The translations under genes were made by a program, and so were the position numbers. A stretch of DNA of 40,470 nt from a virus. Below the pieces are notes generated by a model. The model saw only the letters and a list, made by a program, of their open reading frames with translations. It ran no database searches and had not been told where the DNA came from. How positions within the stretch are numbered: position 1 is the first letter of the stretch; each line of letters starts with the position of its first letter. The DNA lies in the UHGV virus genome UHGV-0078430; one strand, 5' to 3'. Positions 19,907-29,960 of the stretch are shown one piece after another.

Positions 19907-20509
19907 TCATCCCCCGAATGCTGATGTAACGCTTCCGCCCAGCTGGCTCAGCAAAGATTCGTTTGGCGGTGTAGTGGATTTCGTCCCGGAATTTTGCACC
20001 GCCGATGTGCTGACGCCATCCTGCATATCTGATTTATCAGCAACGCTAACGCTCTGCGTTTGCGACATGATCACTTCACGCAGGGTAAGCGTGCAGTTCA
20101 GCACGTTCTCGCTGGTTTTGTCCGTTGTCACCTCGATGGCTCTCACCAGCATATTGCTGTACACCCGCTTCCCGGTCACCACATCGAACGGCACCCGGGA
20201 GGACTGGAGATCCAGCAGTTGCTGATAGGTCTCTTTCGGGCTCAGTCCGGCGCTGAGGCCGATTGAAGATGTATCAATGAAGTCCAGCAACGAACCGCCC
20301 CCAGCGAAGCCGCATTCCATTGTGACTTCGCTGGGGCGCTTATACGCATGATCGGCGATGAAACCCGAGGCGCTATTCGTTGTTGGCTTCTCCACCGGGT
20401 GCTCAGTAATTTCGAGCGCATCAGAATGCTTTTCGGAAACGACCACGCTGGGGATCAGCAGGCCAATTCGCCGTGATTGCTGGCGAAAAATCGCTGATAA
20501 AATATCCAT
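19907..20509 (-). CDS. tail-associated protein, unknown function
   Basis: 200-aa ORF immediately downstream of tape measure gene. Confidence 0.45.
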   Translation of the reverse strand: MDILSAIFRQQSRRIGLLIPSVVVSEKHSDALEITEHPVEKPTTNSASGFIADHAYKRPSEVTMECGFAGGGSLLDFIDTSSIGLSAGLSPKETYQQLLDLQSSRVPFDVVTGKRVYSNMLVRAIEVTTDKTSENVLNCTLTLREVIMSQTQSVSVADKSDMQDGVSTSAVQNSGTKSTTPPNESLLSQLGGSVTSAFGG

Positions 20510-22776
20510 TATCTCGGTCCTGCGGGGAGTTGCTGGGTTAACTGTGAATTCACACCCTTTTGACGGTCAACAGTCAAACGGGCAGCTTCGCGAGGATCGG
20601 AAACGCCGTGGATGTTAATGTTCGTTTCCTGCTGAATCACCGGGGCGCTGGTGGGCATATTGCTCATTACTTTCGGAATGTAATTGCGCGTTTCCTGCGG
20701 CATTAGCCCCATTCCATAACGTTGAACGTTCCCGATTCCCCAGTTATATGATGCAAGTGCTTTGCTAAGGTCTCCGCCGTTCTGCCGCAATAGCTGGCTA
20801 AGGTACTTAGCGGCTGCCTGAGCTGACTTTTCCGGGTCGAACACATCGTTACCACGCAGGCCCATGTCTCGCGCCGTGCCATCCATGAACTGGAACAGCC
20901 CCTTTGCACCCGCGCCGGACATGGCGAACTGGTTACCACCTGACTCGGTTATCGCCACACTTTTCAATAGACCAGCTGGAAGTTGATAAAGCGACTCAAG
21001 TTTATTGAACATTGGCCCCATCCAGTCGAGCAATACTTTGCCCTGGGCTGTGGCCTGTGGACGTTTGACTGATTGCGCAAACTGGGAGGGGTCACCCGAT
21101 ATATTTGGAGAGATTTCAGCAGCTCCAGCCGGGGAGAAAAATAAATTACCGATTTTGGCAATCCCGTCTGAGATTTTTTCAAGATAACCATTAGCAGCCT
21201 GCTGACGGTTTTTTATTTCATCTCTTTCATGCGGGGCAATTTCATTACTACGAACATGCTGTTCCGCCCCGGGAATGTCAGGCTGAACATTATCGCCATA
21301 AACGACGCCATTGCTTTGCGCCTGACGAATAATCTTACCTGGGCCACCATGCAGCCAATCCATCCATGCGGGCCATTCTCTTACCTCGCTAACATCTTTT
21401 CGCCCAAGGTCGGTTTTGATGCCAACCGTAGCAAGAGCATCACCAATGTTCCTTTTGGTATAGTCCAAAGATGATTTAGCACTGGCTTTTATGTTTTCAC
21501 GATCTGAAACCAGGTAACCAGCATACGCTCCCCATAATTTAAGCCATGGAGGTATCGGAAGACCGGATATTTTTGCGAATGCTCCCAATACTTTTGTTAC
21601 CCATACCCCAGCGATGAAAGTAGCCAAAATTTCCAGCGAGTTCTGCCATCCACCAACAGAATCTTTCAGCCCCAGAAGCTTATCGCGCAGCCAGAGAATT
21701 GCCTTTTTCGCCTTTTCTATTGCAGGCTCCCACTTGGACCAGTCAATCAGGCTTTTACCGCCTTCTTTCCACGTCTGATAATCGTCATAGAGTAATCCGA
21801 TCGCCAGAATCAGCGTGGTGATAATTCCAATCGGGGATTTCAGGAACGCAGAATTAAGCAGACGCCATGCGACAAGTAGAGCACCGAATATTTTCAGCAG
21901 ATTTTTACTGCCATCGTCAAGACGCTTCCACCAGTCAATGACAGAGCCAGCGCCCTGTATGAGCCGCCACGCCATTCGCGTGAAGGCGTTCGCAAGCCAG
22001 ATCACGCCTTTAATAACTCTGGTCAGCGTCTCTTCAATCTTCGGGAAGTTGTCGAGGATGCGCCGCCGCAGGCTGTCCAGCGAACCAGCAAGACCACCAG
22101 CGAGGTTTGAGCCGATCTTGTCCCGCATAATGCCGAACAGCGACGTAAGCCCGCGCATGGACGTCATGAATTTATTGGACTGCACAGCCGCCTTATCAGC
22201 GTTGAACCCAGTCTTTTGCAGCATAGACTGGTAATCGGCGGTAAAGCCATTCATGCCGCGCCGCATCGCCATCAGCGTGTTTTCATCGATGCCAAGCATC
22301 TGCGCGTATTGCTTCGCGCGGTAATACGGCATGTTGTTGAGCTTTTGCCCAACGCCAGTAAAGATGGCCGCAGTATCACGCATCTTTCCGCTGGCATCTC
22401 GGGTCTGGACACCAAGACGGTTCAGGAAGCCTTCCGCCCCCGGATTGCTACGCATGAAACCGGCCAGCCCTTCGAGGGAGGACATGGCCGACTCGGCGCT
22501 GGCACCGGTTTGCGACGCGGCATAGCCCAGCGCTTTGATGCCCTGGACGCTGGCCCCCGTCCGTTGGGATGCCCAGTAAATTTTATCCAGACCATTCGCG
22601 ATCTGGGTGGTAAATCCGACAATGCTCAGCGCTGCGCCTTCCACCACCGCGCCGACCTTCAGAACGTTTGCGGTAACGCCTTTCAGCACGGCTTCAAACT
22701 TATTAGCGCCAGCCTGATCGATATCGAATCCCAGCGAAACAAGGAAGTCTTTAATCGTATCTGCGTTACCGCTCAT
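20509..22776 (-). CDS. tail tape measure protein with C-terminal lytic transglycosylase (SLT) domain
   Basis: 755 aa; hydrophobic segments; C-terminal ITESGGNQFAMSGAGAKGLFQFMDGTA motif characteristic of SLT-type transglycosylases; preceded by chaperone gene with frameshift site. Confidence 0.75.
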   Translation of the reverse strand: MSGNADTIKDFLVSLGFDIDQAGANKFEAVLKGVTANVLKVGAVVEGAALSIVGFTTQIANGLDKIYWASQRTGASVQGIKALGYAASQTGASAESAMSSLEGLAGFMRSNPGAEGFLNRLGVQTRDASGKMRDTAAIFTGVGQKLNNMPYYRAKQYAQMLGIDENTLMAMRRGMNGFTADYQSMLQKTGFNADKAAVQSNKFMTSMRGLTSLFGIMRDKIGSNLAGGLAGSLDSLRRRILDNFPKIEETLTRVIKGVIWLANAFTRMAWRLIQGAGSVIDWWKRLDDGSKNLLKIFGALLVAWRLLNSAFLKSPIGIITTLILAIGLLYDDYQTWKEGGKSLIDWSKWEPAIEKAKKAILWLRDKLLGLKDSVGGWQNSLEILATFIAGVWVTKVLGAFAKISGLPIPPWLKLWGAYAGYLVSDRENIKASAKSSLDYTKRNIGDALATVGIKTDLGRKDVSEVREWPAWMDWLHGGPGKIIRQAQSNGVVYGDNVQPDIPGAEQHVRSNEIAPHERDEIKNRQQAANGYLEKISDGIAKIGNLFFSPAGAAEISPNISGDPSQFAQSVKRPQATAQGKVLLDWMGPMFNKLESLYQLPAGLLKSVAITESGGNQFAMSGAGAKGLFQFMDGTARDMGLRGNDVFDPEKSAQAAAKYLSQLLRQNGGDLSKALASYNWGIGNVQRYGMGLMPQETRNYIPKVMSNMPTSAPVIQQETNINIHGVSDPREAARLTVDRQKGVNSQLTQQLPAGPR

Positions 22777-22953
22777 TGGCCGCTCTCCATTTATCTACCC
22801 GGGCGTCGTTATCCTCGCGCATGTCGAGGTAGTCATTGAGAAGCGCGATACGGCAGAGGTCTACCGCACCGCTGTTAAGGTCTTTCTGGTCAATATGGAA
22901 GGCAAGCGCCGGACGAAGAATAAAGTCTTCACCGCCCGGCAGGCTGTTGAAGG

Positions 22954-23379
22954 TTATTCCGCTGGCGGGGTGGGCGTCTCGCTGGTAGGGAGTCCTTGCA
23001 AAAAATTTCCCAGCGAGTCGGCGACCACCCGCGCCACCAGTTGCAGCATGGTAAGCAGGTCGATATCGTCAAACGCCATTTCGCCATGCTGGCAGACCGG
23101 CACCCAGCCTTTCATGTGCTCGCGTGAAACAACGGAAAGACAGGGGAACAGGATAGCGTCCACGTCGCCATCACTCAGATCGGACACAGCATTGGCAATC
23201 TTTGGCAGGATGGTAGCCATCGCGCCTTCGGTGTCTTTGCTGCTGATCTTCTCCTGAACGCTCCGGAAGTCCGAAACCATCCCGGCCAGAACCGGCAACA
23301 GCTTGCGGGACACCTTCAGCTGTTCGAAAACGCTGAGCTTTGCGGTGCGATATTTCACGCCTTTAATTTCGAATTCCAT
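22954..23379 (-). CDS. tail assembly chaperone (G-like), zero-frame product
   Basis: 141-aa ORF between tube gene and tape measure gene; slippery heptamer near 3' end. Confidence 0.6.
   Translation of the reverse strand: MEFEIKGVKYRTAKLSVFEQLKVSRKLLPVLAGMVSDFRSVQEKISSKDTEGAMATILPKIANAVSDLSDGDVDAILFPCLSVVSREHMKGWVPVCQHGEMAFDDIDLLTMLQLVARVVADSLGNFLQGLPTSETPTPPAE
22999..23005 (-). other. candidate -1 programmed frameshift slippery heptamer T_TTT_TTG
   Basis: in-frame heptamer about 15 codons before chaperone stop; -1 frame is open for 77 codons ending at 22766-22768, overlapping tape-measure start. Confidence 0.5.
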
Positions 23380-23382
23380 GCG

Positions 23383-23823
23383 TTAAAACTCCCCGAGAAG
23401 CTGGTCAATCTTGCCGCAGTCGAATACCCAGGCAACGGTTCCGCCCTCTTCAGCGTTATTGAAATCAGGCTGTTTCTGGAATGCACACGAACGCGCAGTA
23501 GAAATATCACCCGATGCCGTGTTGCGAATGACGATCACGTTATTGCCCCAGGTGGCAGAGGACTGGCTTTGCGCGTTATACGCCAGAGACAGCTTTTTAT
23601 TCACCGGGGAGGTTTTGAGTAGCGTCACCGTAATGGTGCCTGACTTATCGGCGTGCAGGCTGTGCATCACCTCGCCGTCGGCACCGATGGTCATGGTGTT
23701 TTTGTTGCCGCCCATGGTCTGGGTGATACCTTCCTCAGAGTTCGCAGAACCCTGACCAAGATCGATAACGCCGGTCGGCCCGGTGAGCGACGCGGTTACA
23801 TCGAGAAAAGAATAAGTTGCCAT
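23383..23823 (-). CDS. putative tail tube protein
   Basis: 146 aa, directly downstream of sheath-like gene and upstream of chaperone; resembles DUF3277-type tube proteins from memory. Confidence 0.5.
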   Translation of the reverse strand: MATYSFLDVTASLTGPTGVIDLGQGSANSEEGITQTMGGNKNTMTIGADGEVMHSLHADKSGTITVTLLKTSPVNKKLSLAYNAQSQSSATWGNNVIVIRNTASGDISTARSCAFQKQPDFNNAEEGGTVAWVFDCGKIDQLLGEF

Positions 23824-23833
23824 TTATCGCTCC

Positions 23834-24994
23834 TTAGCGAACCACGTTGATCTGCACATCGGCGTAATGAACTGCGCCAGCCAGCTTACAAGCCACCTGG
23901 ATTAACGGCGCTTTGCGTGCTTCTCGGTCAGCCTGTGCTTGCTCGGAAAGAGGTTGCGCATACACGTAATAACCTTTTGTCAGCGTATCGCCGGAATTCA
24001 GTTGCCCGATAGGGCCACCATTCCACACGCCAGCCGCTACCAGACCGTTCGTGACGGACTGATCCATGGACTGTTCAACGTTGGAAAGCAGACGGGTCAC
24101 ACCGGCATCAGTCTGCGGAATTTTGGTGGTGCTGGTGTAAAGCAGGTTATAGAGGTTGGTCTGAACGTAGTTCTGCAACCAGTCGAGCCCGTGGCGCTCG
24201 TCGAAGAAGTCACCGTTCGCCATGACACCCTGTTGCAGGATCGCCGTGTCGTTGGCGTAGTACACGAACACGTTCGCATTCTTCGCATCCACAGCCGCCG
24301 CCTGTCCTACCGTCAGCGTTTCGTAGGTTACGCTCGGTTCCTGTTTGAATTTCAGGGTAATGGTGGTATTGCTGCCGTTGAAATTGACAGTAAACGCGCG
24401 ACCGAAAGCTGAAACCGCCGCATAAGGGCTGCTGGTGGAATATTGAATAAAGGTACGGGAATACTTACCGGCCTTTAATTTAGACGCAACATCGGTCGTC
24501 GAAGTCGTGCTGATGATCTCAGCGTCGGCTGACGTTACCCCGAAAATGCGGCTCAGGCTGGACGCTTCGATGAGTTTAGCAACCTCAATCACGTCGTCAG
24601 CATCAAGCACATCATCGCCATCAGCAACATCATCAGCGACAACCAGCCCATACCAGTTGGTATACTGCAGGCAGGCATTAACAGCTTGCACGATGGTTTC
24701 CACGCTTCCACCTTCGGAAGAGGTCAGCGTCTTCGCCCAGCGGCCAACATAAACCTGCGTCGGCTTCGGCGACTGGCTGAAGAAAACCTGCGCCGCTTCA
24801 TATTCCGGGCTGTCGACTCCGAAGTCCTCGCCAATGTCCTCAACGGACGCATAAAGGCGAACGCGCTCCTGCACCGGAATGACAGTGGAAGAACCGAGGA
24901 TCAGCAGTGCGCCGAAGTTACGACCAGTAGCCGCTTTCGGCGAGATGATCACATCAACGTTTACAACGTTGGATACAGGTAAGCCCTGCGTCAT
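23834..24994 (-). CDS. putative tail sheath protein
   Basis: 386 aa, first gene of tail module, upstream of tube-like gene; resembles DUF3383-type sheath proteins from memory. Confidence 0.5.
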
Positions 24995-28727: not shown

Positions 28728-29960
28728 TTATCCTTTGCGGTTAGACCAGAAGTCGGCGTTTTGTTTGTTCAGGGAAGCGATGCTGGTCATGCCCATATTT
28801 GGACGTTGTGCATCGCCCGTGGTGCTGCGGGTGTTTCGCCCTTTGGCAATCTCTGACACGGCGTTAAACGCCATATCTACCGATTGCTTGGGCAATTTGC
28901 GGATATCCGCATCACCGACAACCTGGCGAACCAGTGTTTTGTCAGCGGCAGCCAGCACATCACGTTTGAACGCGGTCGGTTTCACCTTACGGCTCAGATC
29001 GATACCCGGGACGATAACCTCGGCACGATAGGCAGAGTCACCGGTAATCGTGGTTTCCTCTTCGTCGTCCTCGCCGTCGCCGGTCGGATCTTTTTTGTCT
29101 TTTTCGTCAGGCTTATTGTCGTTATCGCCCGTCGCAGTTCCTTCGAGCTTAGCCAGCAGGGCTTTGAGCAAGGTTTTGATATCGTCCTCGCCGTCGCCGG
29201 TTGGATCTCCGCCCATTTCCGGCTTTTTGTCCGGCAATGGTTGCTGCGGTGAAAGGTTAATGTTGAGGTTAACGCCGCTCGGCAGATCCCCTTCGTCACC
29301 CGTTACCGCCGCTGGCGCAGAGTCCAGCAGTTCGTTCATGGTGTCAGCGTCACCCGTTTTGATGGCCGTGCGCATGCGGGTCCACCAGCTTTTCTTTTGA
29401 TTTGCCATTGTGTCTCTGTCTCCAATTGCACAACGATTTCCGGCTCTGCCTTTAGGGACAAGAGCCACATGGTTTCCGGTAATATCGACCTGCTCGGCTT
29501 TACCTGGCTCGGTCTGCTCGTACTCCGCGTCATAGCCGCACGACACTTCGCGCAGACCATCTTCGATAAGCTGAATGGCGCTTTCGTCTTTGACGATAAG
29601 GTCTGCCAGCATCAAATCAGACTGGTCACCAGTCCCGCGCCGCACATTCTGAAGATGCCCGACAGCAAGCTCTTTCCAGTTCTCGGGATTTACCAGCCGC
29701 ACATTCCCGTTTTCATCTTCAGGATGCAGGATCGTGATGCTCATCCCTTCGAATGAGGCGAGCGTGGCCGGATGGAATACCTGCTCAGGAGAACGCGTTA
29801 CGACTATCTCACCGAGCTTGTCGGGTTTGAGGTTTGGCAGATCGGCAGCGCCGTAGAGCTGCTTACCCGTTCGACCTATCGGCACGTCTTTACACAACAG
29901 CGAGCCGTCAGCCAGCTGATAGCGGGTTTCCCCCAGCCGGGTATTGAAAAAATATTTCAT
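28728..29960 (-). CDS. putative scaffold / prohead-core protein with acidic repeats
   Basis: 410 aa; central acidic low-complexity region with duplicated DPTGDGEDD motif; between Mu-F-like gene and capsid genes. Confidence 0.5.
   Translation of the reverse strand: MKYFFNTRLGETRYQLADGSLLCKDVPIGRTGKQLYGAADLPNLKPDKLGEIVVTRSPEQVFHPATLASFEGMSITILHPEDENGNVRLVNPENWKELAVGHLQNVRRGTGDQSDLMLADLIVKDESAIQLIEDGLREVSCGYDAEYEQTEPGKAEQVDITGNHVALVPKGRAGNRCAIGDRDTMANQKKSWWTRMRTAIKTGDADTMNELLDSAPAAVTGDEGDLPSGVNLNINLSPQQPLPDKKPEMGGDPTGDGEDDIKTLLKALLAKLEGTATGDNDNKPDEKDKKDPTGDGEDDEEETTITGDSAYRAEVIVPGIDLSRKVKPTAFKRDVLAAADKTLVRQVVGDADIRKLPKQSVDMAFNAVSEIAKGRNTRSTTGDAQRPNMGMTSIASLNKQNADFWSNRKG

Follow-up and report, generated by a model that had tools for sequence, protein, structure and literature searches.

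The tail assembly chaperone gene of UHGV-0078430 is followed, before the tape measure gene, by a second open reading frame that overlaps it in the -1 frame, and the question that this locus raises is whether the two are separate genes or are joined by a programmed -1 frameshift into one extended chaperone. We refer to the whole stretch of DNA that was analysed, 40,470 nucleotides, as the window. Reading in the direction of the genes, the order is sheath, tube, chaperone, -1 ORF and tape measure, with a family match for each. The sheath gene (DUF3383; 23834-24994) lies upstream of a tail tube gene of 146 aa (23383..23823, minus strand), which matches Pfam PF11681 KPP10_Orf10/DUF3277 (E 1.9e-59) and stands directly upstream of the chaperone. 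The chaperone ORF itself, the G-like or TAC-N partner, occupies the 0 frame at 22954..23379 on the minus strand, encodes 141 aa ending in SLGNFLQGLPTSETPTPPAE before its stop, and matches PF21822 Phage_TAC_15 with an E value of 3.6e-32 and 112 bits against a gathering cut-off of 22. The tape measure gene (20509..22776, minus strand; 755 aa) matches phrog_2276 (E 7e-220) and carries a C-terminal lytic transglycosylase domain (PF01464 SLT, residues 589-689, E 1.2e-24). Two overlapping ORFs between the tube and tape measure genes are the layout of the G/GT type.

The slippery tract at the end of the chaperone domain is the 13-nt G_GGA_AAT_TTT_TTG (22999..23011, minus strand), in which three overlapping heptamers share one phase and sit 14-16 codons ahead of the chaperone stop. 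The core heptamer, T_TTT_TTG (22999..23005, read 5' to 3' as 23005-22999 on the minus strand), is in X_XXY_YYZ phase in the recomputed translation, its first T being the third base of the Asn125 codon; its TTG is chaperone codon 127, after which come 14 sense codons and the 0-frame stop. The 13-mer spells G-N-F-L with four minority codons, for which codon usage alone gives a joint probability of 0.0015. The earlier note named the core heptamer; G_GGA_AAT (23011-23005) and A_AAT_TTT (23008-23002), which overlap it in phase on the minus strand, are absent from that note. Two further candidates in the window were rejected: AAAGGGT at 20560, an in-phase heptamer with a long -1 ORF, merely runs into the next gene, and AAAAAAG at 29096, also in phase and with a long -1 ORF, sits in a spurious ORF nested inside a real 410-aa gene (28728-29960).

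Starting at the G of TTG, the -1 frame (22766..22999, minus strand) reads ARTPYQRD...KWRAANER for 77 sense codons and closes with a TAA at 22768-22766, forming a T-like or TAC-C extension that would bring the predicted fusion of chaperone and extension to 204 aa. This stop overlaps the tape measure ATG (22776-22774); the local sequence across 22766..22776 on the minus strand is AATGAGCGGTAA, and an ATGA-type stop/start overlap is also found in most relatives. The earlier note had placed T_TTT_TTG at 22999-23005 of the minus strand, in the correct frame and about 15 codons before the chaperone stop, had read the -1 frame by hand as open for 77 codons with a stop at 22766-22768 overlapping the tape measure start, and had likened the whole to the G/GT-type chaperone arrangement upstream of tape measure genes. 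Recomputation reproduced the heptamer and its frame exactly to the base and found no earlier stop in the -1 frame, and gene order, protein families, conservation and the lack of a start codon all agree with the G/GT comparison.

The C-terminal end of the extension is a DUF6889 domain (PF21829), covering residues 165-200 of the predicted fusion (22781..22888, minus strand) with an E value of 1e-10 and 41.6 bits against a curated cut-off of 23.9. The extension also matches phrog_4364 (E 2e-17) over residues 151-204 of the predicted fusion. An NCBIfam scan of the predicted fusion returned no family and a PDB sequence search with it nothing relevant, and an AF2 model of the extension alone (pLDDT 57) was too poor for use.

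For comparison across relatives, 86 loci were analysed, with 83 relatives entering the codon-position diversity and 71 non-redundant ones the conservation of short segments. A scan of viral contigs gave near-identical loci only, which were left out of the statistics, and the diversity was taken from a scan of genome contigs. The relatives have a mean pairwise nucleotide identity of 63% (n=83), the lowest being 53%. At this divergence an in-phase T_TTT_TTN is present in 85/86 loci and the exact 13-mer G_GGA_AAT_TTT_TTG in 67/86, and among the 71 non-redundant loci no other 13-nt segment of the locus is as well conserved as the 13-mer (76-82% exact, versus a median of 8.5% for the others). Third-position diversity across the four codons of the tract is 0.18, 0, 0 and 0.18, versus ~0.57 elsewhere. 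T_TTT_TTN is kept where Ser, Gly or Asp stands in place of Asn125 and both other heptamers are lost, and GGGAAA is kept at synonymous sites in ~85% of relatives. The conservation of the slip site exceeds that imposed by the encoded amino acids, as is characteristic of the G/GT type. One relative (L143) counts against the frameshift reading, as its T-run is interrupted (GGGAAATATTTTG) and its -1 ORF is nevertheless intact.

The substitution pattern shows where the constrained frame changes. Past the 0-frame stop, diversity at the three -1 codon positions is 0.288/0.250/0.566 across the 83 relatives, and in the 15-codon overlap zone it is 0.373/0.284/0.538 in the same set; the chaperone gene in its own frame gives 0.323/0.210/0.571. 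Within the overlap zone, the 0-frame tail beyond the slip site, which is predicted to be disordered, has no coding pattern. Since the third -1 position is the most variable one already in the overlap zone, the constrained frame changes at the slip site rather than at the chaperone stop. The extension is genuinely protein-coding.

The earlier note had also proposed a search for a downstream stimulatory structure, and here folding, RNAalifold and Rfam detected none. RNAalifold on 47 diverse sequences gave -0.3 kcal/mol with 2 invariant pairs and no covarying pairs, single-sequence folds of 59 and 112 nt gave z-scores of -0.91 and +0.47, and an Rfam E-value scan of 22600-23400 returned no match; by reading, there is no Shine-Dalgarno-like GGAG, GAGG or AGGA 6-17 nt upstream of the slip site. 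By these results the site falls outside the stimulator-dependent (dnaX / IS3 type) class of -1 frameshifts. Because no stimulatory element was detected, the frameshift efficiency may be low. An E. coli reporter study (PMC4066793) placed the U_UUG tetramer only 1.8- to 3.6-fold above background and has motifs ending in U_UU.G missing from its high-efficiency list, while H_HH.U_UU.Y motifs, A_AAU_UUU included, are among its efficient ones.

Could the open -1 frame and its heptamer be coincidental features of an intergenic spacer from which nothing is expressed? The length of the ORF is weak evidence on this point and by itself only mildly unusual, as the -1 frame is open for at least 77 codons at 5.9% of positions in this window (ORFs of at least 100 aa; median 10). 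However, the extension matches curated families and shows a coding substitution pattern, its length is held at 75-82 codons in 83/86 loci with identities down to 53%, and the slip site is extremely conserved. Chance is untenable because of the family matches and the comparative data, and we assign this explanation almost no probability. Another proposal is already embodied in public annotation, namely that the -1 ORF is a separate small 'DUF6889 family protein' gene with its own start or with re-initiation after the chaperone stop. Stand-alone ORFs are called here by PGAP and other pipelines and are so annotated in RefSeq and several GenBank records, and the alignment column of fusion residue 181 is ATG in 65/83 relatives. 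In the window, however, that column is CTC (Leu), and a start at residue 181 would omit ~50 conserved residues under purifying selection. No start codon is conserved at any alignment column of the extension in the 83 relatives, the -1 frame of the window has no ATG, GTG or TTG from the slip site to 22851, and neither a promoter-like site nor a terminator was found on the minus strand of the chaperone-tape measure gap. The annotated starts are moreover non-homologous. In the RefSeq record of an identical E. coli sequence, the 186-nt 'gap' that separates the chaperone from the tape measure gene carries a 27-aa DUF6889 ORF that starts at ATC, and other records place orphan 'DUF6889' ORFs of 42-75 aa there, some of them labelled 'lytic transglycosylase'. 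Re-initiation after the 0-frame stop fails to account for the pattern because -1 selection already acts upstream of that stop, and we regard a separate gene as highly improbable.

A different route to the same biology would be transcriptional slippage, in which RNA polymerase adds an extra U on the T6 run and a minority of mRNAs, fusing the chaperone and DUF6889 frames, are translated normally into a protein reading ...GNFFAR.... Consistent with this, it is the T-run (T6 or T7), and not one particular heptamer, that is invariant in the relatives, a ribosomal stimulator was not found, and a genomic T7 variant (L169 / P0004) has just such a fusion as a single ORF. To go by its title, Vladimirov et al. 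2022, which PMC12846349 cites, is said to suggest a non-frameshifting mechanism for T4-like chaperone genes, which we counted for transcriptional slippage. However, the upstream synonymous positions (CTG GGA AAT, giving GGGAAA) are also conserved, with a third-position diversity of 0.14-0.18 versus ~0.57; this fits extra ribosomal heptamers, and polymerase slippage would not need GGGAAA. The T6 run is also short: bacterial RNA polymerase usually slips efficiently only on runs of ~9 or more A or T. The identical site in P2 is, in addition, recorded as a translational frameshift. Taken together, these points make transcriptional slippage an unlikely source of the fusion, though less so than a separate gene.

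We therefore return to the ribosome: it is quite likely, judging from the sequence and its relatives, that the window contains a G/GT-type (TAC-N/TAC-NC) programmed -1 frameshift in the tail chaperone of an E. coli myovirus-type prophage, with a predicted fusion product. Most ribosomes would translate 23379-22954 and release the 141-aa chaperone, while a minority would shift one base backwards on the U-run within G_GGA_AAU_UUU_UUG (23011-22999), read 77 more codons in the -1 frame and end at 22768-22766. The predicted 204-aa product would consist of the chaperone domain, a linker and the C-terminal DUF6889 domain. A slip on U_UUU_UUG would lead to ...GNFL-AR... with VVADSLGNFLAR as the junction tryptic peptide, and a slip on A_AAU_UUU or G_GGA_AAU to ...GNFF-AR... 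with VVADSLGNFFAR, a junction that would also be expected from P-site-only slippage or from a U7 transcript. We infer the production of the fusion, the ribosomal nature of the slip and the choice of heptamer. If the system resembles lambda G/GT and P2 E/E+E', the N-terminal domain common to both products would coat the tape measure protein, whose gene follows directly, and the less abundant C-terminal domain would bring in the tube protein. The relative amounts of the short and long chaperone would then be set by the rate of frameshifting, and neither form would be expected in the virion.

As a tentative extension of this mechanism, which we consider possible but doubtful, the 13-nt tract may be a compound slip site, in which three heptamers lead into the same -1 frame and their summed low efficiencies set the ratio of short to long product without an RNA stimulator, or RNA-polymerase slippage on T6 may supply part of the signal. 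If true, this could explain why GGGAAA is kept in ~85% of relatives though T_TTT_TTN suffices in the rest.

The main value of the analysis is correct annotation: the orphan DUF6889 ORFs should all become one joined CDS. Pfam DUF6889 would thereby be assigned a role, as the C-terminal (T-like) domain of a tail chaperone extended by frameshifting, in Enterobacterales myovirus-type prophages of a widespread group. The site is very probably real but ordinary, in the textbook arrangement of lambda and P2, which makes this an annotation fix rather than a discovery, and the understanding of frameshifting and of tail assembly is unchanged. What would be added is a family, unrelated in sequence to that of P2, that uses the same T_TTT_TTG without a stimulator.

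The comparison with P2 E/E+E' rests on several shared features. P2 is likewise an E. coli contractile-tail phage with the order sheath, tube, chaperone, -1 ORF and tape measure, and its identical T_TTT_TTG stands at the end of the chaperone domain with no downstream hairpin. P2 reads GTC GGT TTT TTG, and some relatives of the window read CTG GGC GGT TTT TTG. A short conserved domain of 37-40 aa forms the C-terminus of each extension, and in both systems the -1 stop overlaps the tape measure ATG (AATGAGTAA in P2, AATGAGCGGTAA in the window). The P2 frameshift reportedly has an efficiency of roughly 10%. The proteins, in contrast, belong to different Pfam families (Phage_TAC_7 and Phage_P2_GpE in P2, Phage_TAC_15 and DUF6889 in the window), the chaperone domain has 127 aa in the window versus 85 in P2 and the extension 77 aa versus 57, and P2 is without the two extra overlapping heptamers that GGGAAA before the T-run gives the window. 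Homology between P2 E+E' and the window protein was not detected by blastp (E = 2) or by hhalign, for which a single P2 sequence served as the profile (probability 0.6%). The P2 frameshift was shown experimentally (Christie et al. 2002; Xu, Hendrix & Duda 2004, as cited in PMC3091744), whereas that of the window is predicted from sequence. The window system would thus work like P2 E/E+E' while not being a demonstrable member of its family.

Lambda G/GT (Levin, Hendrix & Casjens 1993; Xu et al. 2013, 2014, as summarised in PMC5009743) is the source of the division of labour proposed above, with the tape measure as partner of the shared domain and the tube protein as partner of the extension (PMC5009743), and the binding assignments suggested for the window would follow that model. 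The lambda heptamer G_GGA_AAG is one base apart from the G_GGA_AAT of the window. Lambda is, however, a siphovirus; AAG, the efficient E. coli A-site codon, closes its slip site, which has no T-run, and its G/GT protein families are unrelated in sequence to those of the window. The Pakpunavirus / Vandenendeviridae TAC-N/TAC-NC genes (Pseudomonas phage Adele) are those of myoviruses, like the window, but of another phage family and host; there, a conserved poly-T GTTTTT near the TAC-N 3' end together with an always-open -1 frame was argued to support a -1 frameshift, and annotations routinely give the downstream ORF, wrongly, as a hypothetical gene of its own (PMC12846349).

Klebsiella phage Mulock offers a true homologue of the pair (CPT_Mulock_014/015, GenBank MN098327) at ~66% nucleotide identity; its 13-mer (GGGAAATTTTTTG) is identical, and its -1 ORF likewise ends on the start of the tape measure gene. 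It differs from the window in its host and its diverged sequence, and its frameshift annotation is a prediction that goes unmentioned in the genome paper. In GenBank the Mulock pair is a single joined CDS named 'tape measure chaperone frameshift product', so a homologous frameshift is already annotated there and the one described here is not new as a kind.

The minus strand of this E. coli prophage carries, in order, the tail sheath (23834-24994, DUF3383), the tail tube (23383-23823, KPP10_Orf10/DUF3277), a 141-aa ORF (22954-23379), the 755-aa tape measure protein (20509-22776), and then baseplate genes (Dit-like, Pam3_gp18-like and hub). Profile matches to PF21822 Phage_TAC_15 (E 3.6e-32) and phrog_1688 (E 2.2e-53) assign the 141-aa ORF as a tail assembly chaperone. 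E. coli TOK-001 carries an exact copy of this region (100% identity), and Citrobacter phage Omnitron matches it at 98.7%. At its C-terminal end the tape measure has an SLT lytic transglycosylase domain (residues 589-689), which is probably why small neighbouring ORFs are mislabelled 'lytic transglycosylase'. Two antisense ORFs of 207 aa (22216-22839, plus strand) and 120 aa (22895-23257, plus strand) face the tape measure start and the chaperone gene, and are taken to be by-products of coding-strand composition.

The earlier note had proposed a -1 frameshift at the heptamer T_TTT_TTG (23005-22999, minus strand), about 15 codons before the chaperone stop, and its coordinates all agree with the recomputed translation. 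The first T is the third base of the Asn125 codon, such that the 0 frame reads AA[T TTT TTG], the phase needed for a tandem -1 slip, and 14 sense codons follow the heptamer. Computational retranslation likewise leaves the -1 frame open for the 77 sense codons previously counted by hand, from the G of TTG (ARTPYQRDAHPASGITFNSLPGGEDFILRPALAFHIDQKDLNSGAVDLCRIALLNDYLDMREDNDARVDKWRAANER) to a TAA at 22768-22766, within the tape measure gene, whose start codon begins at 22776. Unseen in that first reading, two more in-phase heptamers overlap this one, G_GGA_AAT (23011-23005, minus strand) and A_AAT_TTT (23008-23002, minus strand), giving the complete tract G_GGA_AAT_TTT_TTG. The length of the -1 ORF by itself is weak evidence; at least 77 open codons are found at 5.9% of -1 frame positions in this window's ORFs of at least 100 aa. 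A heptamer scan also returned an in-phase A_AAA_AAG at 29096 with a -1 frame open for 120 codons, which is not a frameshift candidate: the ORF holding it (28994-29299, minus strand) is spurious, nested in a real 410-aa gene (28728-29960).

Seven diverged phages (Klebsiella, Hafnia, Yersinia, Escherichia, Salmonella and 'Elizabethkingia') were collected and 79 loci added from bacterial assemblies, one genome per species across Enterobacterales; the comparison set comprised 86 loci, window included, and window-conservation statistics used 71 non-redundant sequences that were on average 63% identical pairwise. Across these alignments the slip site is conserved as nucleotide sequence. Of the 86 loci, 85 carry an in-phase T_TTT_TTN at the homologous codons; N is G in most of them, T in nine and A in a single locus. 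The exact 13-mer GGGAAATTTTTTG is present in 67/86. Over the tract, 76-82% of the non-redundant sequences match the consensus exactly, versus a median of 8.5% (95th percentile 22.5%) for other 13-nt windows. Third-position diversity across GGA AAT TTT TTG is 0.18/0/0/0.18 versus about 0.57 elsewhere, and the phage's structural genes use each of these four codons in a minority of cases (11%, 35%, 38% and 10%), with a joint probability from codon usage of 0.0015. In loci with Ser, Gly or Asp at position 125 instead of Asn, both upstream heptamers are lost while T_TTT_TTG is kept, and the heptamer originally proposed is therefore the invariant core.

The sole locus lacking T_TTT_TTN, L143 from Salmonella enterica s1 (CP191473.1; GGGAAATATTTTG), has its T-run interrupted by a Phe to Ile change and retains only G_GGA_AAT, with the -1 ORF intact; either G_GGA_AAT alone suffices there, or the prophage is defective. 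Another locus, L169 (Logan SRR23924998, 1895-1910: GGGAAATTTTTTTG), has a genomic T7 in place of T6, which makes the chaperone and DUF6889 parts a single 213-aa ORF (GNFFAYTPY; protein P0004, whose 90%-identity cluster has 16 member sequences). The T7 may be a real mutation that leaves only the fusion, or an assembly error in the homopolymer.

The -1 ORF itself is predicted to encode a conserved protein. DUF6889 (PF21829) scores 41.6 bits (cut-off 23.9; E 1e-10) over residues 165-200 of the predicted 204-aa fusion, and phrog_4364 matches residues 151-204 (E 2e-17). The extension after the slip site spans 75-82 codons in 83/86 loci, and in most loci its stop overlaps the tape measure start. The three length exceptions are L111 (Enterobacter sp. 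R1) and L158 (an Arsenophonus MAG), with premature -1 stops after 37 and 9 codons, and L146 (Izhakiella australiensis), where the stop is lost and the frame continues for 256 codons into another gene; in L153 (Apirhabdus) the chaperone ORF is broken. All four are probably decaying prophages.

If the extension were instead translated by re-initiation after the chaperone stop, the constrained frame would not be expected to switch at the slip site, whereas frameshifting predicts that it does. Past the 0-frame stop, nucleotide diversity by codon position in the -1 frame is 0.288/0.250/0.566, which mirrors the chaperone gene read in its own frame (0.323/0.210/0.571). The 15 codons where the two frames overlap give 0.373/0.284/0.538, indicating that the -1 frame is constrained there and the 0-frame tail is not, and therefore that the constrained frame switches at the slip site rather than at the stop codon. 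In line with an unconstrained tail, an AF2 chaperone model (pLDDT 81) has its last helix stopping at residue 128, with residues 129-141 disordered. In the alignment, ATG, GTG or TTG is not conserved at any column of the extension. The most frequent start-codon column has ATG in 65/83 relatives; the window reads CTC at that column, and starting there would omit about 50 conserved residues. No promoter-like site was found in the region. The database proteins that carry DUF6889 are orphan ORFs, 42-75 aa long, whose starts are not homologous, and several of them are misnamed 'lytic transglycosylase'. In the 100% identical sequence of the TOK-001 chromosome, RefSeq/PGAP annotates a separate 27-aa 'DUF6889 family protein' (WP_371831623.1; 22766-22849, minus strand; 2052-2135 in locus L001) whose first codon is ATC. 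These stand-alone ORFs look like artefacts of leaving the frameshift unmodelled.

A frameshift-type fusion is very probably made at the T-run, and we hold with lower confidence that the event would be ribosomal rather than transcriptional. That GGGAAA is retained even at its synonymous positions speaks for ribosomal heptamers, but by sequence alone RNA polymerase slippage on T6 could also make the shift. In an E. coli reporter study, H_HH.U_UU.Y motifs, A_AAU_UUU included, were among the efficient ones, and the U_UUG tetramer was only 1.8- to 3.6-fold over background (PMC4066793); P2 uses U_UUU_UUG all the same. A slip on U_UUU_UUG would yield ...GNFL-ARTP..., while an upstream-heptamer slip, a P-site-only slip or a U7 transcript would yield ...GNFF-ARTP.... 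The downstream stimulatory structure that the earlier note suggested looking for was not found by single folds of 59 and 112 nt (z-scores +0.47 and -0.91), by RNAalifold on 47 sequences <85% identical (-0.3 kcal/mol, two invariant pairs) or in Rfam, and no canonical Shine-Dalgarno-like motif was seen by reading 6-17 nt upstream. Since the P2 E/E+E' site is also reported without a hairpin (PMC3091744), a missing stimulator is no argument against frameshifting.

In practice, the annotation needs correcting and DUF6889 gains a functional label. P2 (NC_001895) has its annotated -1 site, GTC GGT TTT TTG, where the chaperone domain ends, and there the stop of E+E' and the start of gene T overlap (AATGAGTAA), with a corresponding overlap in the window (AATGAGCGGTAA). 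P2 E+E' joins Phage_TAC_7 to a 37-aa C-terminal Phage_P2_GpE domain, and the window protein joins Phage_TAC_15 to a 40-aa C-terminal DUF6889 domain in a parallel architecture. Homology to P2 E+E' was not detected by blastp (E = 2) or by hhalign (probability 0.6%) with a single P2 sequence as profile. The window's system would work like P2 E/E+E' but is not a demonstrable member of that family. A 2025 paper on Pakpunavirus (PMC12846349) argues for a poly-T site in the chaperone genes by the same kind of comparison. A true homologue with the identical 13-mer is found in Klebsiella phage Mulock; its database entry already joins the two parts in a CDS named 'tape measure chaperone frameshift product', on which the Mulock genome paper is silent. 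The conserved G/GT-type arrangement put forward originally is borne out by everything that could be computed, and the site is best read as a chaperone frameshift of the standard G/GT type, one that had already been predicted in a homologue.
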